This document shows, piece by piece, positions 3,285 to 32,000 of a DNA stretch of 32,000 nt. The translations under genes and the position numbers were made by a program. Numbering within the stretch: the first letter of the stretch is position 1; every line of letters starts with the position of its first letter. Origin of the DNA: Chlamydiota bacterium (GTDB taxonomy: Bacteria; Auribacterota; JACPWU01). The notes beneath the pieces were generated by a model, which saw nothing but the letters and a program-made list of their open reading frames with translations, was not told where the DNA came from and searched no databases. The stretch is taken from NCBI GenBank assembly GCA_016196885.1, contig JACPWU010000009.1, positions 8,400 to 40,399 of the forward strand. Direction: 5' to 3'.

Positions 3285-3351
3285 GTTTTAAGGTTTTTAT
3301 CTCTTGTTTTTTACAATTGACTTACGACTCATAACGATCGACTCACGACTG
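3285..3351. repeat. Partial heptamer element: inverted-type core plus single arm (GACTNAC family) immediately upstream of mfd
   Basis: Core GTTTTAAGGTTTTTATCT (3285-3302) closely matches the core at 30500-30520 (GTTTTAAGCGGTTTTTTATCT). The arm is GACTTAC GACTCAT AACGATC GACTCAC GACTG (3319-3351). Its reverse complement matches the left arm at 7541-7572 at about 26/32 positions. Confidence 0.7.
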
Positions 3352-3356
3352 TTTTT

Positions 3357-6300
3357 ATGACACATCCGATTCTTAAAAATCTTCATTTTTTCGAAGAGGT
3401 CTTGAAAAAGGTCCACGAGGGTTCTCGCATTCAGATGAGTGGCCTTTGGGATTCTTCCAAGGCGGCCTTGGCAGCTTGTCTTGCGGATCATTTCCAAAAA
3501 CGGATTCTGGTGGTGACTCCAGGATTGGGAGAAGCCGAGAGATTCTATCGGGATTTTTCTTTTTTTTCTGGAATCTCATGCCACCTTTTCCCCGCTTGGG
3601 AAACCTTGCCGCATGAGAATGTGACCCCTCATGTGGATATTGTAGGAGAGCGCTTTGGGACCCTGATGACCCTTTTAGAATCCGAAAGACCTGAATGCGT
3701 CATCGCCCCTGTCGAGACGCTGCTCTGGAAAATTCCTAGCCCAGAGTCATTTAAAAAAATGATTTTAAATTTATCTTGCGGGGATGAAATTCCTTTGCGC
3801 TTTTTAATGGAGCGTCTTGTAGAGCTGGGTTATTCCAGAGGGGCTGTGGTGGAAGAGAAGGGCCGTTTTGCAGTGAGGGGTGGCATTCTCGATTTTTATT
3901 CTCTGCAAGAGGATTTTCCCTACCGGGTGGAATTCGAGGCTGATCGCATTGTTTCTTTGAGGGTTTTTGATCCTCAGAGTCAGGTTTCTTTGAAACAAGT
4001 AGAACGGGCCAAGATTTTGCCTGCCTTTGAGTTGGAATTAAGACAAAAGAAAAATTTATCATGGGGAAATCTTTCGGATTTTTTTTCAAGTGATTTTTTG
4101 CTCGTCTTGGATGAGGCCGCAAATATTTTTGAAAAGGCGCAATCTCTGGAGAGGGCAAGCGATTTTGGGGTTAAGGTGTTGAAAAATCCCAGAGGTCTTG
4201 AGTTTTATCTTTCTGAGATGGAAGGGCCAGGGGGTGATGAAAAGATGGAGCGAATGGCTTTTTCTATCCAGAGGTCTTGTTCTTGGGAAGATTTGAGAGT
4301 AGAAAATTTGAACGAGGAATGGGGTGATCATCCTCTGCGAATTTTTTCAAAAATCGGCGAGAAGACGCGAGAGGGATTTCACATTTATTTTGTGGTGAAG
4401 AAAGAGGCAGAAGGAGAGAGGCTGAAGGAACTTCTTCAGGAGAAGAAGATGTGGAAAGAAGCCGTGCACCATGTTGTGGTCGGGGACCTTTCAAGGGGCT
4501 TTGTACTTCCCCTTGAAAAAAAGGCCATTCTTACCGACGAAGAAATTTTTGGGAGATTGAGGGTGCGTCCCGTTCGGACAAAGGTTCGTAAAAGTCTTCC
4601 CGTCCAGGAATATTCCCAGTTTGAGGTGGGAGACTGTGTGGTGCATGGGGTGCATGGGATTGCAAGATATCGGGGGGTGAGTCGTAACAGTCAGGGGAAG
4701 CGGGGAGAATATTTAACTTTGGAATATGCGAATCAGGCCAAGCTTTATGTTCCGGTGGATCAAATTGAACTGGTGGAGCGTTACATTGGGATCAAGGGGC
4801 AGGTCCCGCGGTTGAGCCGCTTGGGTCGGGGGGAGTGGGAACGCTCGAAGAAAAAGGCCGAAGGGGCGATTCACGATTTTGCGGCGGAGCTTCTGGATCT
4901 CCAGGCCAAACGCGAGGCTTTGGGGGGCTACGCCTTTGGGCGTGATACGCCATGGCAGAACGAGTTTGAGGCTTCCTTTATTTATGAAGAGACACCGGAC
5001 CAATGGCAGGCGATTGAGGAGGTGAAGCGGGATCTGGAATCTCCTCAACCCATGGACCGCTTGGTTTGCGGCGATGTGGGGTATGGGAAAACGGAGGTGG
5101 CCATTCGGGCGGCTTTTAAGGTGGTGATGGAGGGAAAACAAGTCGCCATCCTTGTTCCGACAACGGTTTTAGCGCAGCAGCATCTTTACACATTTCAGGA
5201 GCGATTTTCGGGATATCCGATTCAGGTGGAAATGCTCTCGCGGTTTCGCAGCGAGTCTGAGCAGGGGAAAATCTTAAAGGACTTGAAAGAAGGAAAATTA
5301 GATGTGGTGATTGGGACGCATCGCCTTTTAAATCAAGATGTGGTTTTTAAAGATTTGGGGTTGCTGGTGATTGATGAAGAACAGCGCTTCGGTGTTTTCG
5401 CCAAAGAAAAATTAAAGAAGATGAGGATTTCGGTGGATGTTTTAACGCTGAGTGCAACCCCCATCCCTCGGACCCTCTATTTGTCTTTGATGGAGGCCAA
5501 AGACATGAGCCTCATCATGACCGCACCTCAAAATCGCTTGCCCATAGAAACAGTTCTGGCGGCCTATGATGACCAGATGGTTCGAGATGCCATTGTTCGG
5601 GAAGTGGCGAGGGAAGGGCAGGTGTTTTTCATCCACAATCGTGTGGGAAGCATTTATCGCATGAAGGAAAGGCTCGAAAAATGGGTTCCGGGTGTTCATT
5701 TTGAAGTGGCGCATGGCCAAATGCCAGAGGATGAATTGGAAGAGGTGATGAAAAATTTTATAGAGGGGAAAATTCAGGTATTGGTTTCAACCAATATTGT
5801 AGAGTCGGGTCTTGATATCCCGAATGCGAATACCATTATCATAGATCGCTCAGAACATTTTGGGTTGGCGGATCTTTATCAATTGAGGGGACGGGTGGGG
5901 CGTCTCCATCGCAGGGCCTATGCCTATTTGCTTTATTCTCGAAATGGGATTTTGACGAAGGATGCCAAGCTCCGGCTAAAAACCATTGAGGACTTTAAGG
6001 AGCTGGGCTCTGGATTTAAGGTGGCCATGCGGGATTTGGAGATTCGAGGAGCTGGAAATATTCTGGGGCGAGCGCAGCATGGGCAAATTTCGGCCGTTGG
6101 ATTTGGACTTTATTGCCGGTTGCTGCAGGCTTCCATTCGTCGGATCAAAAAAGAGGAAGTGAAGGAACGCCACCCCGTGGGCTTGCAATTGGGGTTGGAC
6201 CTCACTTTGCCGCCAGAGTATATTCCAGATGATTCTTTGAGACTGCAAATGTATCGCAAGATTTTTGAAGTGGACTCTTCGCAAAAATTGGTCCAGGTGT

Positions 6301-6572: not shown

Positions 6573-7537
6573 ATGGAAGAAGCAAGGAGAGATTATCCAA
6601 TTCATTTTTTGTTCTCTTTCTTTCCCTTTTCCTTTCATGCCTTTCTCTTTCCCACTCTGCTGTTGTCTCTCGCGTGGTTGCAGAAGTCAATGGAGAAATC
6701 ATCACTTCTCAAGAGTTGGATCAAGTGCTTCGGCCTCTTTACGCAAAATACAAAAGGGCCTATTCGGGAGAAGAACTGAATAAACATATGGAGGAGGCCA
6801 GGCGAGACGCCCTTTCTCAATTGATTGAGCGCAAATTGGTTCTTCAAGAAGCTAAAAAGCAAAACATTCAAATTGAAGACAAGAAAGTGGAGGAGCGTTT
6901 TCAGGCTGTTAAATCCAAGTTTGATTCGGACGATGAATTTTATTATGCCTTGGAGAAAGAGGGGATGACAACGGACCAGTTGAGAGAAAATATTCGAGAG
7001 CAGCTTTTGGTCAAGACGCTTTCTCGGCAAGAGATCTTGAGGTCTATCCATGTTCGTCCCAAGGAGGTCAGCGATTATTACAGTCAAAATACTCAAAGAT
7101 TTTCAGAACCTGAAATGGTTCAAATGGGCCAGATCTTGGTCAAAAAAGGAGATCATGCCGAGGCCGCCAAGCAAAAAATAGAGGAGGCTCAAAAAAAGTT
7201 GAAAGGGGGGACTTCTTTTGAGGCGGTGGCCAAAGAATATTCTGAAGATCCTTACGCGAAGGAGGGAGGAGACATGCCCTTTTTCGCCAAAGGCAATTTG
7301 ATGAAGGAAATTGAAGATGAGGCCTTTTCAATGGAGGTGGGCCAAACGAGTGAAACCATCGAAAGCGATCTAGGGTATCATATTTTAACTTTGAAAGCCC
7401 GTAAGCAGGATCGGGTGAAGCCCCTTTCTGAAGTTTATTCTGAGATTGAGGAAGAACTTTATCAGCAGAAGGTCGAAGCATTCCACGAGAAATGGGTGGA
7501 GAAATTGAAGAAAAAGGCCCATGTGGTGGTGTATTAA
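6569..7537 (+). CDS. SurA/PrsA-like periplasmic peptidyl-prolyl isomerase (SurA N-domain + one parvulin domain)
   Basis: Signal peptide-like N-terminus (FFVLFLSLFLSCLSLSHS). Parvulin/PpiC rotamase motifs (GGDMPFF...ESDLGYHIL). ATGA overlap with the mfd stop and AAGGAGG upstream. Confidence 0.8.
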   Translation: MNGRSKERLSNSFFVLFLSLFLSCLSLSHSAVVSRVVAEVNGEIITSQELDQVLRPLYAKYKRAYSGEELNKHMEEARRDALSQLIERKLVLQEAKKQNIQIEDKKVEERFQAVKSKFDSDDEFYYALEKEGMTTDQLRENIREQLLVKTLSRQEILRSIHVRPKEVSDYYSQNTQRFSEPEMVQMGQILVKKGDHAEAAKQKIEEAQKKLKGGTSFEAVAKEYSEDPYAKEGGDMPFFAKGNLMKEIEDEAFSMEVGQTSETIESDLGYHILTLKARKQDRVKPLSEVYSEIEEELYQQKVEAFHEKWVEKLKKKAHVVVY

Positions 7538-7540
7538 AAA

Positions 7541-7616
7541 CAGTCGTGAGTCGTGAGGGATGAGTCGTGAGTAAAAAATAACTCCTTTAAAACTCACGAC
7601 CCACGACCCACAACTG
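7541..7616. repeat. Heptamer-armed palindromic element, GTCGTGA family, full copy
   Basis: Left arm is CA GTCGTGA GTCGTGA GGGATGA GTCGTGA GT (7541-7572). Core is AAAAAATAACTCCTTTAAAAC (7573-7593). Right arm is TCACGAC CCACGAC CCACAACTG (7594-7616). It lies between the surA-like stop and the pdxA ATG. Confidence 0.8.
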
Positions 7617-7621
7617 TCTTT

Positions 7622-12756: not shown

Positions 12757-14181
12757 ATGGATTACGAACCCGTCATAGGTCTAGAAGTTCATGTTCAGCT
12801 CAAAACAGCGTCCAAGCTTTTTTGCGGCTGTTCGACGAAGTTTGGAGCGCTTCCTAACGCGCAGGTGTGTCCGGTCTGTTTAGGCTATCCCGGGGTGTTG
12901 CCTGTTTTAAATGAGAAGGCTCTGACCCTTGCGGTTATGGCGGGTCTAGCTATGGGGTCGACGGTTGCTCTCTACAGTAAATTTGATCGTAAAAATTATT
13001 TTTATCCCGATTTACCCAAGGCTTATCAAGTTTCACAATATGATGAGCCTATTTGTCTCGGAGGAAAAATTGACATTGAGGTAGAAGGGACACGCAAAGA
13101 GATTCGTTTGACGCGCATTCATTTAGAAGAGGATGCGGGGAAATCCATGCATTTCAAAGGCGACACAGGTGTGGATTACAATCGTACTGGAATCCCTTTG
13201 ATTGAAATTGTATCAGAGCCCGATTTAAGGTCTCCTCAGGAGGCCTATCAATACTTAAAAGAGCTGAAAACGATTTTAGAATATTTGGATGTGAGTGATT
13301 GCAACATGGAAGAGGGGAGTCTTCGCTGTGATGCGAATGTTTCTTTGAGGCCGGTAGGTGAGAAAAAAATGGGGACGCGAGCGGAAATCAAAAATCTGAA
13401 TTCTTTTCACAATGTTGAAAAAGCAATTACATATGAAATTGAACGCCAAAAAGAACTTTTGTCTCGGGGTGAGCGTATTGTTCAGGAGACTCGGCTTTGG
13501 AATGCGGATGAAAGCTTTACGCGTTCGATGCGAAGCAAAGAAGCCGCCCATGATTATCGTTATTTCCCTGAACCCGATTTAGTTCCGATCGTCTTTTCTG
13601 CTAAAGAGATTGAATCCGTTCGAGTGAGTTTACCAGAGCTTGCCCAGAGGCGCAAAGAGCGCTTTATGAAGGATTTTGCTTTGACGGCCTATGACGCGGA
13701 GGTTTTGACGGCCCAAAAAGACCTTGCCGATTTTTTTGAGCGCTGCCTAAAATATTCTAAAAATGCAAAGGCGATTAGCAATTGGATGATGGGCGATTTA
13801 ATGAGAGAATTGAAGTTGAAAGATTTGGGAATAGCCCAGTCTCCTATGTCCCCGGAGCATATTGCAGGATTGATTGAACTGATGGATCAAGGAAAAATCA
13901 GCGGAAAAATGGCCAAAGATGTTTTTCTTGAAATGTTTGGCACAGGAAAATCTGCGCAAGAGATTGTGAGCGCGAAGGGATTGAGTCAGCTTTCAGATTC
14001 CTCTCAAATTGAGGGTGTGGTCAAAAAAGTGATTCAGGAAAATCCACCTTCGGTTCAGGATTACCGAAATGGAAAGAAGAATGCTCTGAGTTATTTGGTA
14101 GGACAAGTGATGAAGGCCACTCAGGGTCGTGCAAATCCGAAGATGGTGAATGAGTTGTTGGTGAAAGAATTGGAAAAATAG
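12757..14181 (+). CDS. gatB: Glu/Asp-tRNA amidotransferase subunit B
   Basis: YEPVIGLEVHVQL N-terminus, CPVCLGYPGVLP, and a C-terminal GatB/YqeY domain. The TAG stop is the first nucleotides of the downstream heptamer array. Confidence 0.95.
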   Translation: MDYEPVIGLEVHVQLKTASKLFCGCSTKFGALPNAQVCPVCLGYPGVLPVLNEKALTLAVMAGLAMGSTVALYSKFDRKNYFYPDLPKAYQVSQYDEPICLGGKIDIEVEGTRKEIRLTRIHLEEDAGKSMHFKGDTGVDYNRTGIPLIEIVSEPDLRSPQEAYQYLKELKTILEYLDVSDCNMEEGSLRCDANVSLRPVGEKKMGTRAEIKNLNSFHNVEKAITYEIERQKELLSRGERIVQETRLWNADESFTRSMRSKEAAHDYRYFPEPDLVPIVFSAKEIESVRVSLPELAQRRKERFMKDFALTAYDAEVLTAQKDLADFFERCLKYSKNAKAISNWMMGDLMRELKLKDLGIAQSPMSPEHIAGLIELMDQGKISGKMAKDVFLEMFGTGKSAQEIVSAKGLSQLSDSSQIEGVVKKVIQENPPSVQDYRNGKKNALSYLVGQVMKATQGRANPKMVNELLVKELEK

Positions 14182-14261
14182 CGTACAGCGGATAGCGTTC
14201 AGCGTACAGGAAAAACACAATTCCTGATAAACTGAACGCTGTACGCTGATCGCTGAACGCT
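14180..14261. repeat. Heptamer-armed palindromic element, AGCGTNN family, full copy (type specimen)
   Basis: Left arm is AGCGTAC AGCGGAT AGCGTTC AGCGTAC AG (14180-14209). Core is GAAAAACACAATTCCTGATAAA (14210-14231). Right arm is CTGAACG CTGTACG CTGATCG CTGAACG CT (14232-14261). It is followed by AGGAG and the accD ATG. Confidence 0.85.
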
Positions 14262-14273
14262 AGGAGTTTTATC

Positions 14274-15190: not shown

Positions 15191-16507
15191 ATGAATACGA
15201 ATATCGAATATCAAAAGACTCTCTCCTGGCTAGACACCCGATCCCGCTTCGGGATGAAATTGGACCTTGAGAATATTCGAGAGTTACTCGAGGCCTTGGG
15301 AAATCCTCATTCCAAGCTCAATGTTGTTCATGTGGCCGGGACCAATGGCAAAGGCTCCACTTGTGCCATGATGGTTTCTATTCTCAGAGAGGCGGGTTAC
15401 TCGGTAGGGCTTTACACATCTCCCCATTTAATTTCTCCTCGAGAAAGAATTCAAAAAAATGGGGAGTGGATTTCAGAAGGGCATTTTGTGAAGGGGATTT
15501 TGGAGATTAGATGTATCACTGAAAATTTGGAGGCGAAAAATATTTTCCCCACTTATTTTGAATTGATCACTGCCTTGGCCTTTTGGTTTTTTGCCCAAAA
15601 GAAGGTAGATTGGGTGGTTTTAGAAACGGGGATGGGGGGGCGTTTGGATGCGACCAATATTGTGAATTCTAAAACGCAAGTGATTACGAATATAGATTTA
15701 GAACACACGCAGTATTTGGGGAAAACCATAGGAGAAATTGCATCTGAGAAGGCGGGCATTATTAAATCAGGCTCTCATGTGGTCACAGCGGCTCAGGGAG
15801 AGGCACTGGAAGTCATTGAGGCAAGGGCGGATCTTTTAGGGGCTCGGGTATTGCGTCTGGGTCATGAACTTTCTTTTGAGAAAATAAACGCAGATTTAGA
15901 AGCTCAGAGATTTAAAATTCATACAACGCGCGATCATTATGATGTTTGTTTAAAACTTTTGGGTTCTCATCAGATGGAAAATGCTGTTTTGGCGGTAGCG
16001 GCTGTAGAGTGTTTGAGAGAAGGAGGCGCTTTAATCTCAAACGAAGCCGTTTTGTCCGGTTTAGAAAAGGCTTGTTGGCCGGGACGTTTTGAGGTGATTC
16101 AACGGGATCCTTTGGTCATTTTGGATGCGGCTCATAATCCAGCGGGGGCTCAGGTTCTAGCTAGAACCTGGAAAAAATATTTGAAGAATGAAAAAGCCTT
16201 GCTCATATTCAGTGCCTTGAAAGACAAAGATGTAGAGGGAATGGTTCAGGAATTATCAAATATTGTGAGAGAGGTAAGATTAGTCCAAGTTCATCATGAA
16301 AGAGGGTTATCACTGGGAGAGCTTGAGGACGCTTGGGAAAAAGTTCTTCCCCCTTCTCAGATTCACGCGTCTTCTCTCGAGGAGATGTTAGAATTTATTC
16401 ACGACGACAATCGAAAGGCACCTCTTTTAATTACAGGTTCTATTTATTTGTTGGGGGAGGTGCTTGAGAAAATGTGCCAACGTCATAATGTGCCAATGTG
16501 CCAATGA
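15191..16507 (+). CDS. folC: Bifunctional folylpolyglutamate synthase / dihydrofolate synthase
   Basis: Mur-ligase P-loop (VAGTNGKGST) and DAAHNP motif. It follows accD, as in the E. coli accD-folC arrangement. The last ~12 codons (MCQRHNVPMCQ) are read from the ATGTGCCA repeat array. Confidence 0.9.
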   Translation: MNTNIEYQKTLSWLDTRSRFGMKLDLENIRELLEALGNPHSKLNVVHVAGTNGKGSTCAMMVSILREAGYSVGLYTSPHLISPRERIQKNGEWISEGHFVKGILEIRCITENLEAKNIFPTYFELITALAFWFFAQKKVDWVVLETGMGGRLDATNIVNSKTQVITNIDLEHTQYLGKTIGEIASEKAGIIKSGSHVVTAAQGEALEVIEARADLLGARVLRLGHELSFEKINADLEAQRFKIHTTRDHYDVCLKLLGSHQMENAVLAVAAVECLREGGALISNEAVLSGLEKACWPGRFEVIQRDPLVILDAAHNPAGAQVLARTWKKYLKNEKALLIFSALKDKDVEGMVQELSNIVREVRLVQVHHERGLSLGELEDAWEKVLPPSQIHASSLEEMLEFIHDDNRKAPLLITGSIYLLGEVLEKMCQRHNVPMCQ

Positions 16508-17375: not shown

Positions 17376-18659
17376 ATGTTTTCAAAAAGCCTCTTGATAG
17401 GGTTGATTTCCTTCTTTGCTATTACCTCCCTTTTTTCAGAGTCGCCTCTTGTGTATCGCATGGAAGACTTGGTCCAGCGGGCGCTTGAGAATTCCCAGGA
17501 ACTGAAGCTTTTGGACGAGGATATTCAGCGTTCTGAAAAGGAATTGAAAGTGACCAGAACCTCTTATTGGCCGCATTTGACGCTTCAGGGAAATTTGGGG
17601 GTGGATCTTTTTTCTCTGGAGGATTTTGACCCGAATCGCAACATGGGATCGGATCTTATTTTAGATTGGAATTTTTTTCAAAATGGACTGGTTTTTTATC
17701 GGGTCGAGCAGGCCAAGGCCCAGGTGGAATTAGCCCGTCTCCAAAAGAAGGCAAAAGAGATTGAACTGGCGCATCACATTCGAATTTTGATTTGTGATCT
17801 TTTGGAGAAACAAGAATCTTTGAAATTGCAAGAGGCCGAGCAGGATTTTACTCAAAAGGGGTTTGAAAAACTTCGGTTGGAATTTGATCAGGGCAATGTG
17901 CGCAGGAATGATCTTTTGAAGCACCGGATTGAAATGTATGAGAAACAAAATCTTTTGGATCAGGCTCGAAGAGAGTATGAAGCAAACTTTCAAAAGATTA
18001 AAAATGAGGCGGATGTGATTTCTGTGGAAAATATTGCTCCACCTGAAATTGAAACGGAGACTTTGCCTTATGAAAAATGTGTCCAGATGGTTTTGAAGTG
18101 TCGTGTGGAGATTCGACAGGCTGAGATTCAGTCTCAATTGACTGAGCGGGCCCTTCGGGTCTCCAAACTGGGTTTGTTGCCTCGCTTGGACCTTTTTGCT
18201 GGAAATGCGTTTGCCCTGGATGATGTGGGCCAGAATTCAGATCCCTTTCAATTTCGCACGGGGGTCATTGCCCGTTACCCCTTGTACGATGGGGGCGAGG
18301 CCCGTCTTCAAATTGTGCTTGCCCAAATGGCGGTCCGAAAGGCCCATTTTCAATTAGAGGAGGCTAAGAAAAAAGTTTTGGGGGAGTTAGAAAGTGCCTA
18401 TGGAGATTGGGAAGATGCAAAGAGGTTTTTCCAAACGGGAGAGCTTCAATATGAGGGTGTGATGCAGGAATTTGAAAAAACGCAGGGTGAGTTTAAACAG
18501 GGCCAACTTTCTCCTTATGAATGGGAGGAAAGCGAATTGAGTCTGAGAAGAGCCCAAGCGCATGCCTTAGGTTTGAGGCTAGCCGTGATTCGCAGAGAGG
18601 CTGCCTTGGCAAAAGTGATGGGACTGAAAAGTTTGGAAGAGATGGCGGATCCGCAATGA
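17376..18659 (+). CDS. TolC-like outer-membrane efflux protein
   Basis: Signal peptide (MFSKSLLIGLISFFAITSLFS), GAGGAAG Shine-Dalgarno, and a coiled-coil-rich two-repeat OEP-family composition. ATGA overlap with the next gene. Confidence 0.8.
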   Translation: MFSKSLLIGLISFFAITSLFSESPLVYRMEDLVQRALENSQELKLLDEDIQRSEKELKVTRTSYWPHLTLQGNLGVDLFSLEDFDPNRNMGSDLILDWNFFQNGLVFYRVEQAKAQVELARLQKKAKEIELAHHIRILICDLLEKQESLKLQEAEQDFTQKGFEKLRLEFDQGNVRRNDLLKHRIEMYEKQNLLDQARREYEANFQKIKNEADVISVENIAPPEIETETLPYEKCVQMVLKCRVEIRQAEIQSQLTERALRVSKLGLLPRLDLFAGNAFALDDVGQNSDPFQFRTGVIARYPLYDGGEARLQIVLAQMAVRKAHFQLEEAKKKVLGELESAYGDWEDAKRFFQTGELQYEGVMQEFEKTQGEFKQGQLSPYEWEESELSLRRAQAHALGLRLAVIRREAALAKVMGLKSLEEMADPQ

Positions 18660-19870
18660 CATTTCAGAAAAAATCTTGGTTTTTATGGGGGGGCATTCCT
18701 ACCTTGCTTCTCTTTTTTTCTGTGGGGGCTTGGGTGCGCTCATTCCGTGAGTCTGTGGCCCCGGAGCTAAAGGCCGTGGTCTCTCGTGGAAGTATTCGTC
18801 AGGTGATTCAGGGGGGAGGCACCTTAGAGGCAGATGAAATCAAATCCGTCCAATCGCCGCTGGAGGGAACGCTCAAAAATATTTTCGTTCACAGCGGAGA
18901 TAGAATTAGAAAGGGAAAAATTATTTTCGAAATTGGAAACGATCATTTTAAACAAGATCTCGCATTGGCTCGAGCTCAGTACGATCAAGCACTTTTGGAA
19001 TGGAAGAAAATGAAAAATCTTCCGAACGAGGCAGCGATGCTGGAGGCCAAAAATACCTTGGAGAAGGCCAAACAGGTGCTCCAAGAAACAGAAAAGGAGG
19101 TTCGAGATAAAAAAGACCTCTGTGAAAAGGGCTTTATTTCTCAAAAGGAATTAGAAGATGCGCAAAATTATTTGAGCACGGCCAAGACGGAAAAAGACAT
19201 TGCCTTTTCGCGGTGGAGCGAAGTTTCAAAACCTTCCTCACAAGAGGATCGCAGCCTTAAGAAGGCAGAGCTTTCCAAGAAAAAAATGGAATTGAAAAAT
19301 CTGAAGGCTCAGTGGAAGGGCCGTCGTTTCAAATCCCCGTTTAAGGCCTGGGTGGTGGATATTTCAAAGAAGGTGAATGAAGAGGTGGGTCGAGAGGATC
19401 CGATTCTAAGCTTGGTCAATTTGGAAAAACCCTTTGTGGTCAAGGGGGCACTTTACGAATCGGACGTGCATGAGGTGAGAGAAGGAGAGAAGGCCTGGAT
19501 TAAAATGACGGGATCCCGTCAGAGGTTAAAGGCAGAAGTGACAGAGGTCTCCCCGATGGCGCAAAGCGTCGGGGGTGGAAGAAAATTCCCCATGAAATTG
19601 CGTGTTGATGGAAAAATTCGGGGCGTGCCTCGATTGGGTGTTGCGGTGGATTATGAAATTTTTGTTCAGGAGAAACAAAATGTTTTAACACTGCCGCTTC
19701 CTTTTGTGGTGCATGAAGAAAGTCAAAGAGGTGCCTGGGTTTTAAAGGGAGGAAAGGCTCGGTTCGTTCCTTTGGGATTGGGTCTGAGCGATGATGCAAA
19801 AATTGAGGTGATGGGGGGAGTCAAAGAGGGAGAGGAAGTGATTTTGCCGCGAGCGAGGGTTGAGTCTTGA
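18656..19870 (+). CDS. HlyD/MacA-like periplasmic adaptor (membrane fusion protein)
   Basis: N-terminal TM anchor (WFLWGGIPTLLLFFSVGAW), a lipoyl/barrel-sandwich segment (PLEGTLKNIFVHSGDRIRKGKIIFEI) and a long coiled coil. Start taken at ATG 18656, which overlaps the tolC-like TGA. Confidence 0.8.
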   Translation: MTFQKKSWFLWGGIPTLLLFFSVGAWVRSFRESVAPELKAVVSRGSIRQVIQGGGTLEADEIKSVQSPLEGTLKNIFVHSGDRIRKGKIIFEIGNDHFKQDLALARAQYDQALLEWKKMKNLPNEAAMLEAKNTLEKAKQVLQETEKEVRDKKDLCEKGFISQKELEDAQNYLSTAKTEKDIAFSRWSEVSKPSSQEDRSLKKAELSKKKMELKNLKAQWKGRRFKSPFKAWVVDISKKVNEEVGREDPILSLVNLEKPFVVKGALYESDVHEVREGEKAWIKMTGSRQRLKAEVTEVSPMAQSVGGGRKFPMKLRVDGKIRGVPRLGVAVDYEIFVQEKQNVLTLPLPFVVHEESQRGAWVLKGGKARFVPLGLGLSDDAKIEVMGGVKEGEEVILPRARVES

Positions 19871-19882
19871 AGAAGTAACCCC

Positions 19883-19943
19883 CCTAGCCCAGCAAGGAAG
19901 GCTGCACTGCCACTGGCAGTGCAGCCTTCCTTGCTGGGCTAGG
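19883..19943. repeat. 61-bp perfect palindrome (30-nt arms) in the macA-macB intercistronic gap
   Basis: CCTAGCCCAGCAAGGAAGGCTGCACTGCCA-C-TGGCAGTGCAGCCTTCCTTGCTGGGCTAGG. The arms are exact reverse complements, checked base by base. Confidence 0.9.
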
Positions 19944-19949
19944 TAAAAA

Positions 19950-20018
19950 AACATCTACTACCGCGGTCGGCTTTGCATTGCCACTGGCAATGCAGCCTCC
20001 CTTGCTGGGTTGGGGGAG
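19950..20018 (+). repeat. Left ~68-bp inverted repeat flanking the macB genes
   Basis: AACATCTACTACCGCGGTCGGCT | TTGCATTGCCACTGGCAATGCA | GCCTCCCTTGCTGGGTTGGGGGAG. The 23-nt outer block is an exact reverse complement of 22066-22088. Confidence 0.85.
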
Positions 20019-20041
20019 TTATTTCATTATCCTTGTCATTT

Positions 20042-20797
20042 ATGTCTGAAACCATAATCTTAAATTCCATTGAAAAAAAACTTGAGAGACCTCAAATCTC
20101 TTCCCCTATTCTCTGTGAATTAATCGCTGTTTCAAAAGAGTATTCACTCGATTCTGGAAATGTGATGGCTCTCAAAGACATCCATTTTCGCCTTTACGAA
20201 AAAGATTTTTTATCCATTTTAGGACCGAGTGGCTCTGGGAAAAGTACCTTGCTTCACATCCTGGGTCTTTTGTCAAATCCATCCAAAGGAAGAATTTTCT
20301 TTAAGGGACAGGATGTTTCTTGTTTGAGCGAATGGGCTTTGGCCCGATTGAGAGGCCAAAAAATCGGTTTCGTTTTCCAGGCCTTTCATTTGCTTCCCTC
20401 TCTCAATGCCTTGGAAAATGTAGCGCTTCCTCTCATCTATCAACGGGTCAGTGGGGGCCAGAGGAAGAGAAAGGCACTCGAGGCTCTTGAAAAAGTGGGG
20501 CTTGCAAGGCGTTCGCACCATTTTCCCAGGCAGTTATCAGGGGGAGAGTCTCAGCGAGTGGCAATTGCGAGGGCCTTGGTGAGTCAACCTTCTTTAATTT
20601 TGGCGGATGAGCCCACTGGAAATTTAGACACTCAGATGGGAAAAGAAATTTTGGGAATGCTCAAAATGTTGAATGAAGAAGGCAAAACGGTCGTGGTTGT
20701 GACACATGATGTTCGGATTGCGAATGAAGCCAATCGGATTCTCTTTTTGAAAGATGGGAAAGTAGAGAGTTTGAGTTCTAGAGGTGAGGCGAGATGA
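20042..20797 (+). CDS. MacB/LolD-type ABC transporter ATP-binding protein
   Basis: Walker A (GPSGSGKSTLL), signature (LSGGESQRVAIARAL), Walker B (ILADEPTGNLD). The track start 19973 lies inside the inverted repeat, so ATG 20042 is used. Confidence 0.9.
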   Translation: MSETIILNSIEKKLERPQISSPILCELIAVSKEYSLDSGNVMALKDIHFRLYEKDFLSILGPSGSGKSTLLHILGLLSNPSKGRIFFKGQDVSCLSEWALARLRGQKIGFVFQAFHLLPSLNALENVALPLIYQRVSGGQRKRKALEALEKVGLARRSHHFPRQLSGGESQRVAIARALVSQPSLILADEPTGNLDTQMGKEILGMLKMLNEEGKTVVVVTHDVRIANEANRILFLKDGKVESLSSRGEAR

Positions 20798-22005
20798 AAT
20801 CCCACCTGATTTTTTACGATCATTTAAAAACGGCTTTTCAAATGGTTTCGACGCATCGGCTGAGATCCCTTTTGAGTGTGGTGGGGATTGTCTTTGGGGT
20901 TTTGACCTTGATGGTGACGCTGTCTATTGGAGAGGGGACACGTCGAAAAATCATGAAGACGATTGAGGCGATGGGATCCAATTTAATTTACGTCTCTTCG
21001 CATGCAGGGATGAGTCAGGACGCGGGTTTCGAATACATTCCATTGACTGAAGCAGAATGTCAGCGTTTCAAAGAGGTGAAAGGAATAGAGGCCTATGCCC
21101 CCATTTTAAGCTCTGCCTTTTTGATGCAGGCCTCCACCTTTCAGCAGGTCATTCCCGTGGAGGGGACGACGCCTTCTTATCAAAGGGTGAGGGATTTGGC
21201 TCTCGATCAAGGCCGGTTTCTCGCGGATGAGGATGTGTTAAAGGAATCACGCGGGGTGGTGATTGGAAAAGATCTCGCCCAATTTCTTTTTCCTTTTCAG
21301 AATCCCTTGAACCAAAAAGTTCACCTTTGGGATGAAAGTTTTAAAGTGGTCGGCGTCCTTCAGAAAAAGGGGCGGACTTTTGGAGTGGATTTTGACCGCG
21401 AGGTTTTAATGCCTCTTTCGACTCTACAGCAAATTCAGGGAAAAAGAGGGGAGGTGCAGGGGGCTTGGATTCGGACCCCCCGCGGGGATTTGACGAAGCA
21501 GGTGATGAGACAGATGGAAATTTTACTTTCCCGTAAAGATGTAGAGATTTGGGATCAGGAGGCACTTCTTTCGAAGAAGGATCGCATCACGCGGGCCTTT
21601 AAATGGTCTTTGGGATCCATTGCCTTGGTGAGTTTATTGATAGGAGGCATCGGGGTCATGAATGTCCTTTTGGTCTCTGTGGCAGAGCGGATTCGTGAAA
21701 TGGGGCTTCGAAAGGCTGTGGGTGCGACCTCCAGAGATATTCTTTTTCAATTGATATTTGAGTCTGTCTTTTTAACTCTGACCGGGTCTTGTGTGGGCAT
21801 CTTGTTGGGGCTTGTCACGGGAGATTTCATCGCCTGGCTTTTGAATACCCTGCTTCCGAGCACAGAAAAGTGGGAAGCGGTTTTTTCTTGGAGTTCAATC
21901 GGGGTTGCATTTCATTTTTCTCTATGGGTGGGACTTCTTTTTGGTCTTTATCCTGCCTGGAAGGCGTCCAGGCTGGATCCGTGTGAGGCGTTGACGTATT
22001 TTTAA
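20794..22005 (+). CDS. MacB-type ABC transporter permease (periplasmic MacB_PCD-like domain + FtsX domain)
   Basis: 403 aa. N-terminal TM, a ~230-aa periplasmic domain and a C-terminal FtsX-like 3-TM bundle (ERIREMGLRKAVGAT). ATGA overlap with the ATPase gene. Confidence 0.9.
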   Translation: MKSHLIFYDHLKTAFQMVSTHRLRSLLSVVGIVFGVLTLMVTLSIGEGTRRKIMKTIEAMGSNLIYVSSHAGMSQDAGFEYIPLTEAECQRFKEVKGIEAYAPILSSAFLMQASTFQQVIPVEGTTPSYQRVRDLALDQGRFLADEDVLKESRGVVIGKDLAQFLFPFQNPLNQKVHLWDESFKVVGVLQKKGRTFGVDFDREVLMPLSTLQQIQGKRGEVQGAWIRTPRGDLTKQVMRQMEILLSRKDVEIWDQEALLSKKDRITRAFKWSLGSIALVSLLIGGIGVMNVLLVSVAERIREMGLRKAVGATSRDILFQLIFESVFLTLTGSCVGILLGLVTGDFIAWLLNTLLPSTEKWEAVFSWSSIGVAFHFSLWVGLLFGLYPAWKASRLDPCEALTYF

Positions 22006-22020
22006 AGTAATGGGTCCTGT

Positions 22021-22088
22021 CCCTCCTCACCCAGCAAGGAAGGCGTTTCTTCCAGTGGAAGAAACAGCCGACCGCGGTAGTAGATGTT
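22021..22088 (-). repeat. Right ~68-bp inverted repeat flanking the macB genes
   Basis: The reverse complement reads AACATCTACTACCGCGGTCGGCT | GTTTCTTCCACTGGAAGAAAC | GCCTTCCTTGCTGGGTGAGGAGGG. It has the same three-part layout as 19950-20018, with a different but still self-complementary middle hairpin. Confidence 0.85.
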
Positions 22089-22212
22089 GTTTTCCATTTA
22101 ACGGTCGACGGCATCGGTCTCGAAATAGTTTTTGATCATGATTCTTGGCGTAAGTCTCGACCTGCTGGCGCTCGATGGGGGACCCCCAGTCGGGCCACCC
22201 ACTACTTTTCAT
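22027..22212 (-). CDS. Small hypothetical ORF (61 aa), possibly a truncated gene; C-terminal third is translated repeat
   Basis: Its ATG overlaps the TGA of the upstream DUF1570-like gene (ATGA on the minus strand), which suggests translational coupling. From about residue 40 onward the frame runs through the inverted repeat at 22021-22088. I recognise no family. Confidence 0.25.
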   Translation of the reverse strand: MKSSGWPDWGSPIERQQVETYAKNHDQKLFRDRCRRPLNGKQHLLPRSAVSSTGRNAFLAG

Positions 22213-23276
22213 CGTTTCGCCATTTGCCTTCTAAAATTTTGAAAGTCCTTCTCCAGTTGCTCAGGGGTTGTCCTTAAATTTCTCGCCAAGATTGCGATTT
22301 GAGTGCTTTCCTCTGGGTGGTTCTGGACCTGTTTCAAAAATTGATAGAAGCCGGTTTGTCGGGGCGATTGCATGAGATAATAAATGAGACACCAGGAGGT
22401 GGCATAGGCATCGAGGGCCTGGTTTTCATTCAGACCGAGGAAACTTCGAATGCTCATCAATTCTGAAACCTTCATGGGTGGAAGGTAGGCCAGGAGAAGC
22501 ATGTACTGGCGATGGGGAAGACCGATTTGCGCCTTTTCACAATAGACCGCCCAGCCTTCCAGAAGCCAGCTCGCCACATTTTTCGGGAGGATGTTGTATT
22601 GTGCCGAAAGTTGATGGGTCGCTTCATGGCGCATGAGGCTGAGGGTCTGGTCCATTTGGCCTGTCAAAGTCGGCAGGAGAATTTCTTGGTAGCGAAAAGG
22701 GATTTTGACATGGGCGAGGGGAGAGGTGCTTTTCGTGATGTCGAGCGCATTGTAGAGATAAAGCCGGTGGTCTTTGAAGTTGTAGAAACCGCAGACCCAC
22801 TCAGGGACACGGTTTTTTCGGCGGAATTCCTGAAAGGTTTTTTCAGAATCAAAAAAAACCACTTGAAGACCCAACCCGCGTTGGCCAGAAAGAAGCATGG
22901 AAAAGGTGCCTCGAAATTGAGTTTCAAAGGAGAGTAAGGTTTGAAGTGCATTCTGAAAGGCGAAGGATTTTTTTTCCGTGAGAATGGAATAAACAGGAGT
23001 TTTTACAAAAGTGAAGGATGGAAAGTCTTGTTTAAATTCAACATCTTCTAGGGAGATAAATTTTTCAGCTACCTGGGCCTCCATCGCCAATCCATGGCGC
23101 AGTTGAAGTGTCTTTTCATCCCAGGTTTGGGAGGTAGGATGGGAGGGGATGACAGATTTTTTGAAAGCGACTTGTAAGCTACGTGTGGAAGATTCTTCTT
23201 TTTTTCTGTTTTCGAAGAAGAGGCCTGTTCCTACGATAACAGCTATTAAAGTGGTTAGCCTCAATAAAGTTTTCAC
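22209..23276 (-). CDS. Secreted/anchored hypothetical protein with HExxH-like motif (DUF1570-like putative metallopeptidase fold)
   Basis: GTG start. N-terminal hydrophobic anchor (LLRLTTLIAVIVGTGLFF). MRHEATHQL ... LLEGWAVYCE pattern. The family assignment is from memory and not verified. Confidence 0.65.
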   Translation of the reverse strand: MKTLLRLTTLIAVIVGTGLFFENRKKEESSTRSLQVAFKKSVIPSHPTSQTWDEKTLQLRHGLAMEAQVAEKFISLEDVEFKQDFPSFTFVKTPVYSILTEKKSFAFQNALQTLLSFETQFRGTFSMLLSGQRGLGLQVVFFDSEKTFQEFRRKNRVPEWVCGFYNFKDHRLYLYNALDITKSTSPLAHVKIPFRYQEILLPTLTGQMDQTLSLMRHEATHQLSAQYNILPKNVASWLLEGWAVYCEKAQIGLPHRQYMLLLAYLPPMKVSELMSIRSFLGLNENQALDAYATSWCLIYYLMQSPRQTGFYQFLKQVQNHPEESTQIAILARNLRTTPEQLEKDFQNFRRQMAKR

Positions 23277-23442: not shown

Positions 23443-24672
23443 ATGGACGCTTTTGAAACGACAAATATTTATTTCCACCGTGCTGCAGATCTTTTGGGTT
23501 TGAATGAAAGGGTTCGTACCCTCCTTCTCAATCCTTCCCGTGAGGTGAAGGTTTCCATTCCCATTGAGCGCGAGGACGGGACCCTGGCCCATTTTGTGGG
23601 TTATCGAATTCAACACAACAATGCGCGAGGCCCCTTTAAAGGGGGGTTGCGTTACCATCATCAAGTGAATGCTGAAGAGGTGAAGGGCTTGGCCTCTCTG
23701 ATGACTTGGAAAACGGGGGTGGTGGATGTTCCCTTCGGAGGAGCGAAGGGTGGCATTGCCTGTCATCCCCAAGATTTGAGCGAACATGATTTGGAAATTT
23801 TGACACGGCGATTCGTTCAGCAGATTCATGAATTCATAGGACCCACAGTGGATATTCCGGCGCCCGATGTGAATACCAACGCCCAGATCATGGCCTGGAT
23901 CATGGATGAATATTCGCGCATGAAGGGATATGCCCCGGCGGTGGTGACGGGAAAACCTTTAGCGCTCGGGGGCTCGGCGGGGCGTGAGGATGCCACGGGA
24001 CGGGGTTGTGCGATTGTGATTGAAAATTTTTTCAAGAGTCAGGGAAAAACTTTGAAGGGATTAAGATTTGCCCTTCAGGGATTTGGCAATGTCGGCTCTC
24101 ATCTGGCTCATTTCCTGGATGAAAAAGGGGCCCTTGTCATTGGGGTCTCAGACTCTCATGGGGGGGTGATGCGAGGGGAGGGGCTTGACATTCCCCGCTT
24201 GATAGAATATCAAAGGCGCGAGAAAACCGTGGTGGGTTTTCCACAGGGAAATTCTATCAGCAATGAAGAACTTTTGGTGATGGATTGTGATTGCCTGGCG
24301 CCTGCCGCGTTGGGGGAGGTGTTGACGCGAGAAAATGCAAGGCATGTGAAGGCGCGGGTGATTTTGGAGGCAGCCAATGCGCCGACCACCCCGGAGGCCG
24401 ATGAGGTTTTTGAAAAAAAAGGCAGGGTGGTCATCCCTGATATTTTGGCGAATGCCGGCGGCGTGGTGGTTTCTTATTTTGAGTGGGTTCAGAATCTTCA
24501 GAGTTTTAAATGGACTTTGGAACAAGTGGTGGAGGAACTCACGCGCGTGATGACGAAGGCTTATGAGTCCGTGGTGAACATTGCGACGACCAAAAAGGTA
24601 CCCTTGAGAACGGCGGCGTTTGCATTGGGTGTGGGAAGAGTCGCAAAGGCGATGACTTTGAGGGGATTGTAA
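23443..24672 (+). CDS. gdhA: Glutamate dehydrogenase (Glu/Leu/Phe/Val dehydrogenase family)
   Basis: Catalytic VPFGGAKGGI motif and a GFGNVG Rossmann dinucleotide motif. The start is taken at ATG 23443 (AGGAG upstream) rather than 23422, which lies inside the leader hairpin. Confidence 0.92.
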   Translation: MDAFETTNIYFHRAADLLGLNERVRTLLLNPSREVKVSIPIEREDGTLAHFVGYRIQHNNARGPFKGGLRYHHQVNAEEVKGLASLMTWKTGVVDVPFGGAKGGIACHPQDLSEHDLEILTRRFVQQIHEFIGPTVDIPAPDVNTNAQIMAWIMDEYSRMKGYAPAVVTGKPLALGGSAGREDATGRGCAIVIENFFKSQGKTLKGLRFALQGFGNVGSHLAHFLDEKGALVIGVSDSHGGVMRGEGLDIPRLIEYQRREKTVVGFPQGNSISNEELLVMDCDCLAPAALGEVLTRENARHVKARVILEAANAPTTPEADEVFEKKGRVVIPDILANAGGVVVSYFEWVQNLQSFKWTLEQVVEELTRVMTKAYESVVNIATTKKVPLRTAAFALGVGRVAKAMTLRGL

Positions 24673-24673
24673 A

Positions 24674-24753
24674 GACAGTCCACAGTCCAGGGTCGGCAGT
24701 CCACAGAAAAAAATTCCTTATAAACTGTTGACTATGGACTATCAACTATGGAC
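24674..24753. repeat. Heptamer-armed palindromic element, CAGTCCA/CTATGGA family, full copy
   Basis: Left arm is GA CAGTCCA CAGTCCA GGGTCGG CAGTCCA CAG. Core is AAAAAAATTCCTTATAAA. Right arm is CTGTTGA CTATGGA CTATCAA CTATGGA C. It lies between gdh and the cNMP-binding gene. Confidence 0.85.
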
Positions 24754-24770
24754 TTCTTTTAGAGGAGATC

Positions 24771-26233: not shown

Positions 26234-26254
26234 TTTGTTTCGAATTTCGGATTA

Positions 26255-26383
26255 GGCATATGCACTTGATTCCCCTCAGATAGCAAGAATTTGTAGTCGC
26301 CCCATTTATGGGGCAGCCTTGTGCCCCTTGCATGGATTGCCCGATGAATCGGGCGACTACTAGGGGAATCAAGTGCATATGCC
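26255..26383. mobile_element. MITE-like 129-bp element with perfect 22-bp terminal inverted repeats
   Basis: GGCATATGCACTTGATTCCCCT (26255-26276) is the exact reverse complement of AGGGGAATCAAGTGCATATGCC (26362-26383). One nucleotide outside each TIR lies a 10-bp direct repeat, ATTTCGGATT (26244-26253 and 26385-26394). There is no coding capacity. Confidence 0.7.
26293..26360 (+). repeat. REP doublet (REPIN/BIME-like), GTAG-type, with 24-nt spacer, nested in the MITE-like element
   Basis: GTAGTCGCCCCATTTATGGGGC (26293-26314), a 24-nt spacer AGCCTTGTGCCCCTTGCATGGATT, then GCCCGATGAATCGGGCGACTAC (26339-26360), which is the reverse complement of GTAGTCGCCCGATTCATCGGGC. Confidence 0.75.
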
Positions 26384-26437
26384 CATTTCGGATTTCGAGT
26401 TTCGTGTTTTTTTTGAACGTATAGCAGAAATGAATTT

Positions 26438-30464: not shown

Positions 30465-30469
30465 AAAAA

Positions 30470-30547
30470 CAATCGATAGTCCATAGTCGACAGTCGATCG
30501 TTTTAAGCGGTTTTTTATCTATGGACTGTGGACCATTGACTGTTGAC
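30470..30547. repeat. Heptamer-armed palindromic element, TAGTCNA/CTNTGGA family, core in inverted orientation
   Basis: Left arm is CAATCGA TAGTCCA TAGTCGA CAGTCGA TCG. Core is TTTTAAGCGGTTTTTTAT, whose reverse complement is ATAAAAAACCGCTTAAAA. Right arm is CTATGGA CTGTGGA CCATTGA CTGTTGA C. It shares the exact heptamers CTATGGA and CTGTTGA with 24674-24753. Confidence 0.85.
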
Positions 30548-30564
30548 TTTCAATTGTTATCACC

Positions 30565-31847: not shown

Positions 31848-31917
31848 TTTTGCATTAATCCGCATTTCATCTGAAAATAGTCTTTACTCATTCTTATACA
31901 ATAAGTTATGATGAATT

Positions 31918-31962
31918 GTAGTCGCCCGATTCATCGGGCAGCCCCATAAATGGGGCGACTAC
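31918..31962 (-). repeat. REP doublet (REPIN-like), GTAG-type, 1-nt spacer; inverted relative to the 26.3-kb copy
   Basis: GTAGTCGCCCGATTCATCGGGC-A-GCCCCATAAATGGGGCGACTAC. Its reverse complement equals 26293-26360 minus 23 nt of spacer. Confidence 0.8.
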
Positions 31963-32000
31963 AAGGGTGATTTTCATCCCCCTTTGTGACTGAAAGTCAT

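Follow-up and report, generated by a model that had tools for sequence, protein, structure and literature searches.

The question raised by this locus is whether two long inverted repeats that enclose a pair of transporter genes are the ends of a mobile or invertible gene cassette, or are repeats that arose around genes already in place. The locus lies in a 32,000-nucleotide stretch of DNA from an uncultured Chlamydiota bacterium (assembly GCA_016196885.1, contig JACPWU010000009.1, positions 8,400 to 40,399 of the forward strand), which is termed the window. The analysis covers 38.6 kb of the genome, the window and 6.6 kb further upstream. The enclosed genes, collectively termed macB, encode an ATP-binding cassette (ABC) ATPase and a MacB-type permease. 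The best reading, given about an even chance of being right, is that the repeats represent a lineage-specific, low-copy hairpin repeat that was locally duplicated, in inverted form, around resident genes, and that they do not bound a macB cassette able to move or invert. Three elements are concerned:

19883-19943, no strand assigned: element P, a 61-nt perfect palindrome (30+1+30)
19944-20030, plus strand: element L, the left repeat copy, delimited by alignment and cofolding
22008-22094, minus strand: element R, the right repeat copy, inverted, between the convergent permease and DUF1570 genes

L and R share an outer 23-mer, Z (AACATCTACTACCGCGGTCGGCT), which has two exact copies in the window, at 19950-19972 (plus) and 22066-22088 (minus), where the chance expectation is 0. 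The inverted match extends to 28 nt at 96% identity. By alignment and cofolding, the complementarity spans approximately 19944-20030 with 22008-22094. An earlier sequence-only reading of this DNA had given the inverted repeats a length of ~68 bp; the inverted repeats are real, but their length is ~87 nt. An inner box of 15 nt, Y (GCCTYCCTTGCTGGG), is found in four copies, at 19888-19902 (minus), 19924-19938 (plus), 19995-20009 (plus) and 22030-22044 (minus). All four are inside 19888-22044, compared with 0.09 copies in shuffles. In its 16-nt form (19995-20010 in L, 22029-22044 in R) the box is identical between the two copies at 15 of 16 positions.

Between Z and Y both copies carry a perfect 21-nt palindrome (10+1+10) with the apex CCA-S-TGG. 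The left hairpin, TGCATTGCCACTGGCAATGCA at 19974-19994, has the stem TGCATTG..., and the right hairpin, GTTTCTTCCAGTGGAAGAAAC at 22045-22065, has the stem GTTTCTT.... These stems have only one of seven positions in common, and each is nonetheless fully self-complementary; chance complementarity of 7+7 positions has a probability of 6e-5 per hairpin. A third hairpin, TGCACTGCCACTGGCAGTGCA (stem TGCACTG...), is one compensatory pair apart from the left hairpin. The window has no 21-nt perfect palindromes besides the left, right and P-core hairpins. Five of its stems are 10 bp or longer, where shuffles give 0.13. The feet of the hairpins read GGCT(T) before the stem and GCCT after it. The earlier description of identical outer 23-mers, nearly identical inner 16-mers and differing but self-complementary middle segments is borne out, as is its statement that hairpin structure survives sequence change. 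The third hairpin had been described as a nearby palindrome copy. Its single compensatory difference stands, but it is really the core of the 61-nt palindrome P.

The order of parts in L is an A-run, Z, the palindrome, Y, a G-rich extension TGGGGGAG (20011-20018) and then TTATTTCATTAT. R is inverted relative to L, not direct, and displays Y, the palindrome with the other stem and the exact copy of Z. P begins 13 nt past the stop codon of the adaptor gene and consists of CCTAG, Y in reverse complement, the hairpin TGCACTGCCACTGGCAGTGCA, Y and CTAGG. In L, Y and the extension form a small terminator-like hairpin at 19997-20018, ~24 nt ahead of the ABC start codon. Simple intrinsic terminators were considered as an identity for these elements and rejected; the main hairpins have no T-run, and a weak one is found at the small hairpin of Y and the extension alone.

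Two further observations concern Z. It contains an 8-bp perfect palindrome, ACCGCGGT at 19957-19964, with a SacII site at its core, which could be a candidate site for a dimeric protein. The sequence GGCTGTTTCTTCTACTGAAAAGA at positions 50-72 of the window, in the 3′-terminal part of the DXP synthase gene, agrees at 19 of 22 positions with GGCTGTTTCTTCCACTGGAAGAA, in which the end of the 23-mer adjoins the right hairpin. This may be a fourth, decayed copy of the module, or chance.

Whether the transporter genes arrived with the repeats is decided by related loci. The genes at the locus are:

17376-18659, plus strand: outer-membrane efflux protein OEP (TolC-like, PF02321), gene 1 of the operon
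18656-19870, plus strand: periplasmic adaptor MFP (MacA/HlyD/YknX-type), 404 amino acids
20042-20797, plus strand: ABC ATPase (PF00005), 251 amino acids, with its start at ATG 20042 and not TTG 19973
20794-22005, plus strand: MacB-type permease (MacB_PCD + FtsX), 403 amino acids
22027-22212, minus strand: open reading frame of 61 codons, running into element R from the stop codon of DUF1570
22209-23276, minus strand: DUF1570/peptidase-MA-like gene, convergent with the permease gene and with the same neighbour in the relative L009

The tolC-like, macA-like and macB gene calls of the sequence-only reading agree with these family assignments. Two relatives, L008 and L009, together cover both flanks of the window arrangement in the same orientation. 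The gene order is accD-folC-rnc(minus)-OEP-MFP-ABC-permease in L008 and OEP-MFP-ABC-permease-DUF1570(minus)-GDH-cNMP-binding-FAD in L009, where GDH is glutamate dehydrogenase. Their macA-macB junctions are short and repeat-free, with MFP-ABC gaps of 12 bp (L008) and 6 bp (L009), whereas the window has 171 bp at this junction. The convergent spacer between the permease and DUF1570 genes is 100 bp in L009 and 203 bp in the window. The core of the 23-mer and the Y box are absent from the L008, L009 and L006 loci. The closest homologues of the permease are Chlamydiota proteins at ~62% identity, and the GC content of the locus is unremarkable. As the operon is kept in relatives that have no repeats, the comparison of gene order shows the ABC and permease genes as resident in the ancestral tolC-macA-macB operon position rather than cargo, and P, L and R as lineage-specific additions to the spacers flanking macB. 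The 61-codon open reading frame on the right had been thought to look truncated. It matches no family, is uncalled in the NCBI annotation and has no counterpart in L009, where the orthologous spacer is too short; it is probably spurious and not a truncated gene.

Signatures of inverted duplication are seen in P. Its left arm and flank (19872-19923) correspond, inverted and at 85%, to the right half of L with its flank (19974-20025), and its two arms are identical to one another at 30 of 30 positions. P has the look of a part of L that was copied in inverted orientation and whose symmetry was later perfected or maintained. It is also polymorphic. From 19943 on, the Logan contig L018 (SRR12113417_740959), which comes from another sample, matches the window at 100% over 1400 nt, and it lacks P, the breakpoint being the exact right end of P. 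The first 37 nt of L018 are unrelated to the window. This upstream flank is GGGAGGGGAATTGTTTGGTTTTCGGACAGCCTGAAAT, and its translation, EGNCLVFGQPEM*, resembles the C-terminal motif of the adaptor in relatives. GTAA is found on either side of P, with the "empty" allele of L018 too diverged upstream to establish a target duplication.

The simplest reading of L018 is a strain with another macA allele, an L copy and no P. A further contig, L005 (SRR12113417), breaks 60 nt into macA, and the two breaks suggest a divergent macA allele between identical flanks. A search for this variant allele with the MFP protein returned that protein and one 43% homologue, at a 1e-40 cut-off that fragments would probably fail to reach. 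In their outer flanks, L018 and R are ~65% similar over 17 nt. The duplicated unit probably reached slightly past the 23-mer.

The perfection of the palindromes points to a cause at the DNA level. Folding energies of the plus and minus strands show no bias at the palindromes, and the L/R differences have no wobble (G-U) bias; these tests for selection at the RNA level gave no signal. Together with palindromes that are perfect to a 1-nt centre, they speak more for a process acting on DNA than for selection of a folded RNA. A mutational process of this kind, quasipalindrome correction with fold-back inverted duplication by template switching, is said to go back to work by Ripley in 1982 and by Dutra and Lovett, and reportedly produces compensatory changes on two arms without selection. 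Perfect palindromes and local inverted duplications, as in P and in the pair of P and L, resemble its products. It is, however, a mutational process and not an element family, and alone it leaves the near-complete replacement of stems between L and R unexplained.

In the mechanism proposed here, L and R are two inverted copies of one ~87-bp non-coding spacer repeat, comprising an A-run, the 23-mer, a perfect 21-nt palindrome, the 15-mer box and a G-rich tail, and P would be a third, partial copy turned into a perfect 61-nt palindrome. The copies would most likely have arisen by local inverted duplication, through template switching or fold-back copying at palindromes. Less likely is a low-copy element, similar to a miniature inverted-repeat transposable element (MITE) or a repetitive extragenic palindrome (REP), moved by an enzyme encoded elsewhere. 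The palindromes would stay perfect through the copying of changes from one arm to the other in DNA; alternatively, a structure-reading protein might tolerate any stem. In place, the elements would add very stable stem-loops to the transcript of the operon, both in the macA-macB interval and where the convergent genes end. What is shown is the anatomy and lineage specificity of the repeats, that the genes are resident and that all assemblies agree on one orientation; the duplication mechanism, the palindrome correction and the effects on the transcript are the parts of this reading that we infer.

Several points weigh against local duplication around resident genes. The flanks are identical at 23 of 23 and 15 of 16 positions (39 positions, one change), while the stems differ at six of seven positions on both arms. 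Neutral divergence after duplication cannot explain fixed flanks with free stems, and constraint on the flanks, gene conversion that halts at the palindrome, or stem replacement must be added. Two such additions remain. By analogy with hairpin-reading DNA enzymes and some RNA-binding systems, the flanks and apex might be read by sequence and the stem by structure. Or gene conversion might homogenise the flanks, with the palindrome blocking or escaping it and palindrome correction keeping the stems perfect. In addition, the metagenome-assembled genome (MAG) from which the window derives is evidently in none of the genome, metagenome and viral collections that were scanned, so there may still be an abundant dispersed family. 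Assemblies give the majority orientation only, and a low-frequency inversion is invisible in them. Finally, at exactly this place a Logan contig breaks off (19993/19994) and L018 has a different flank, which points to variation or to further copies.

Among the alternatives, it is possible, although not likely, that L and R are copies of a small mobile element, REP/REPIN-like or MITE-like, that landed independently to either side of macB, with a RAYT/HUH or other transposase encoded elsewhere. REP and REPIN sequences are repetitive extragenic palindromes associated with RAYT; their families bear GTAG or CGTC tags (PMC3733652, PMC3116915). Di Nocera et al. (PMC3733652) describe REP families in which stems vary in a complementary manner and heterodimers occur, and compensatory stem change is therefore not unusual for bacterial palindromic repeats. 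The macB repeats resemble these families in being short spacer palindromes, which often occur as inverted pairs that fold into one long hairpin (as P does), and in the complementary stem changes between members and the heterodimers with different stems. The same genome carries bona fide GTAG-tagged REP-like dimers, so a hairpin-reading enzyme may be present, and P displays a presence/absence polymorphism flanked by GTAA. The macB repeats differ in that the foot of the hairpin has no GTAG or CGTC tag, the nearest GTAG being 11 nt off, within the complement of the 23-mer. Conservation in them also lies in long asymmetric flanks, the 23-mer at one end and the 15-mer at the other, instead of in the stem, and in the 38.6 kb covered they are found in three copies at one locus, where REP families have tens to hundreds of dispersed copies per genome.

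A comparison with MITEs, such as the Correia element of Neisseria and ERIC/IRU, and with MITE-bounded integron mobilisation units gives a similar result. These are also non-coding long hairpins of ~60-150 bp at gene ends or inside operons; they are polymorphic for presence or absence between strains, as P is here, and two copies can flank genes. In contrast, neither clear terminal inverted repeats nor a clear target duplication is seen for L and R, dispersed copies were not found in the 38.6 kb, and the flanked genes are resident. The edges of the module display weak inverted similarity alone (GAAATGTAA ... TTATTTC; TTAAATGG ... CCATTACTTTAA). Two other types of mobile element were tried and rejected. 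An IS200/IS605-type or PATE element spanning the genes does not fit hairpins that are inverted and not on the same strand, and no tnpA (Y1) is present. Integron attC sites would require direct orientation and an integrase.

Copy number also weighs against an independently mobile element. Three copies of the module are found within 2.2 kb, and there is none outside 19872-22094, that is, in the other ~36.5 kb of readable sequence (the rest of the window and the 6.6 kb upstream). The module is thus clustered at one locus, while the REP-like dimer recurs three to four times in the same DNA, which speaks more for local duplication, or for a low-copy element, than for a dispersed family of high abundance. 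The possibility that two dispersed repeats happen to be inverted, raised by the sequence-only reading, comes closest to the evidence, but not as to "dispersed", with all three copies within 2.2 kb. No gene for a recombinase or transposase was detected in the 38.6 kb, RAYT (Y1 HUH transposase) included; their absence from the window had been stated earlier and extends to this longer sequence.

Searches of sequence collections gave no further copies. In collections that evidently do not include the source MAG, the pattern of hairpin apex plus Y box has zero matches among genome, metagenome and viral contigs, and a 20-nt core of the 23-mer has zero matches among genome and metagenome contigs. The full 23-mer has zero matches in viral contigs, and a blastn search with 19872-20030 against plasmids and phages found no match. 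The concatenated six-frame translation of the module matched nothing in a protein database at E<=10, with peptides too short for significance. Rfam returned no matches at the gathering score; sub-threshold matches to generic miRNA hairpins were found alone, on P.

A second alternative, the rival of chief interest, is set at the RNA level and is doubtful. Here L, 5′ of macB, would pair with R, 3′ of it, in the operon transcript, to give a four-way junction of Z:Z′, Y:Y′ and two self-folding hairpins. The message for the ABC ATPase and permease would be looped out like an rRNA processing stalk, and a cut by RNase III could uncouple macB from tolC-macA. In the stalks of rRNA operons, the 5′ flank pairs with the 3′ flank and the resulting stem is cleaved by RNase III. 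The likeness is that complementary 5′ and 3′ flanks could loop the unit out as a long duplex, and the genome has an rnc gene. The differences are that an mRNA is concerned, that the duplex would be broken by a four-way junction, and that its cleavage and function are putative.

Such pairing would explain why complementary flanks are kept while each hairpin pairs with itself alone. The predicted cofold is exactly a four-way junction, at -118.3 kcal/mol, and the gain over separate folds is -64.5, compared with -9.2 +/- 3.2 for a shuffled partner. However, a cofold of this kind follows by construction from any inverted duplication. There is no plus-strand promoter-like site in the MFP-ABC spacer, and macB therefore probably depends on read-through, so that L and R would share one transcript. 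The missing strand asymmetry and the absence of a G-U bias in the few L/R differences argue against pairing of this type, as does perfection to a 1-nt centre, more than an RNA hairpin needs; the P palindrome on the left also competes for the Y box. An all-against-all screen for duplexes between spacers re-found the repeat pairs alone, with energies driven by length.

In the window, two further transcription units also lie between inverted pairs of spacer elements, which is in favour of RNA pairing; brackets elsewhere nevertheless follow trivially from neighbours that share heptad types, of which ~2-3 exist. An extension to the whole genome is improbable. In it, matched spacer elements at the borders of units would pair in RNA to close, process or stabilise messages, with "address" sequences that differ by unit. 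The proposed addresses are Z/Y at macB, AGTCGTG heptads at Mfd-SurA and CAGTCCA heptads at the block from cNMP-binding to citrate synthase.

A third alternative, an invertible segment, is unlikely. Invertons are phase-variable segments bounded by short exact inverted repeats, for example the fim switch and the invertible promoters of Bacteroides. A recombinase encoded elsewhere would act on the 23-28-bp inverted repeats and flip the 2.1-kb ABC-permease segment, which would then shift from the tolC-macA transcript to the DUF1570 transcript. As in invertons, an exact 23-bp inverted repeat (28 nt at 96%) bounds a discrete segment, and the flipped ABC genes would lie downstream of and co-directional with DUF1570. 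The orientation was assessed in two MAG assemblies and in Logan contigs, all of which show the majority state only. The MAG contig JACOUD010000075.1 (GCA_016178005.1) and the near-identical sister contig are both in the reference orientation. So are L003 (SRR12113387), which leads from macA across P and the 23-mer up to 19993; L001 (SRR12113387), from 19964 through the right repeat to 22182; and L018, which spans the left 23-mer. A single orientation is seen in every junction-crossing assembly, and it is the ancestral operon orientation for two whole genes.

L003 and L001 overlap by exactly 30 nt (k-1) at 19964-19994, which marks a branch of the assembly graph at 19993/19994. This branch in SRR12113387, which may stem from a variant or a further copy, could be taken to favour inversion, but it sits at the 3′ foot of the left hairpin (last base 19994) and not at the boundary of the 23-mer, where an inversion junction is expected. 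With no recombinase within 38.6 kb, the phase-variable module that had been suggested for this locus is not upheld.

The remaining proposal, that a composite transposon bounded by terminal inverted repeats imported the ABC ATPase and permease genes as cargo, is very improbable and fails on synteny: long inverted repeats do bound precisely the two genes, and the identity of L018 to the window begins sharply at the outer edge of L beside a different upstream flank, but such a transposon needs a site empty of these genes in relatives, whereas L008 and L009 have the orthologues there in the same four-gene operon, repeat-free; the homologues are vertical-looking Chlamydiota proteins, the GC content is not unusual, the flank of L018 encodes an MFP-like C-terminus that is most simply the end of an allelic macA, and no target-site duplication bounds the whole unit.

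The macB repeats are one of several kinds of spacer palindrome that this genome has accumulated. Most gene-end spacers hold long hairpins with arms of tandem heptads, in which six positions are paired and one is mismatched per seven (a period of 7 was confirmed by TRF). They have a conserved A-rich loop, AAAAA..TTCCTKATAAAC, with stem heptads that vary (TAGCGTN, GTCGTGA or CAGTCCA), and Z-scores down to -7.7. Their positions are:

60-164, 7529-7621, 14171-14273, 24673-24770 and 30465-30564 of the window: heptad hairpins
3306-3356 of the window: half element
2829-2936 of L019: heptad hairpin
7165-7262 of L009: heptad hairpin

A hairpin of this type is found in the permease/DUF1570 spacer of L009, with the loop TTTCCATAAAC, which is echoed by TTTTCCATTTAAC just outside R. 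No described family was matched in a literature search for heptad hairpins. The nearest analogue is the heptamer STRR repeats of cyanobacteria. Relatives L008 and L009 are otherwise without the repeat families of the window. A 47-nt inverted repeat of 81% identity (3317-3363 and 7529-7575) encloses Mfd-SurA and reaches the Mfd start and SurA stop codons, and a 20-nt inverted repeat of 95% identity (24724-24743 and 30475-30494) encloses the block from cNMP-binding to citrate synthase. Along the window each bracketing type of spacer repeat occurs exactly twice.

The GTAG-tagged REP/REPIN-like dimers have the form GTAGTC + GCCCGATTCATCGGGC + GCCCCATAAATGGGGC + GACTAC, with the two hairpins one compensatory G/C pair apart. 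They are located as follows:

26291-26360 of the window: dimer within a 37-nt inverted repeat (26240-26276 and 26362-26398)
31916-31964 of the window: dimer
4095-4110 and 4180-4225 of L019: dimers
3258-3548 of L006: dimer

Such dimers occur three to four times in the 38.6 kb, and the type is common to a different Chlamydiota MAG (GCA_016196915.1). This sharing suggests a RAYT-type system in these genomes.

Two other features of the window are of a different nature. At 24259-24419 of the window, inside the glutamate dehydrogenase gene, the contig JACOUD010000075.1 (GCA_016178005.1) is missing 161 bp and has no gene call. The gap, against the intact copy in the window, represents either an assembly or a strain difference. 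A tandem repeat of period 8, AATGTGCC, is present in 4.5 copies at 16471-16506, where the folC and rnc genes end convergently.

The locus provides a documented case of lineage-specific hairpin repeats in the efflux-operon spacers of an uncultured Chlamydiota genome. It also provides a caution, in that long inverted repeats around genes do not imply mobility or invertibility. The macB repeats are moderately interesting in themselves, for an architecture of conserved flanks and apex with a free stem and for the possible pairing of L and R in RNA. If the module is a true low-copy mobile element, its conserved asymmetric flanks and apex with a free stem, unlike those of REPs, would point to a new structure-reading enzyme, and if the 5′ and 3′ elements do bracket the message, they would represent a new mode of tuning expression below the level of the operon. 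The surrounding genome, with heptad-periodic, conserved-loop hairpins in most of its gene-end spacers, is the richer lead.

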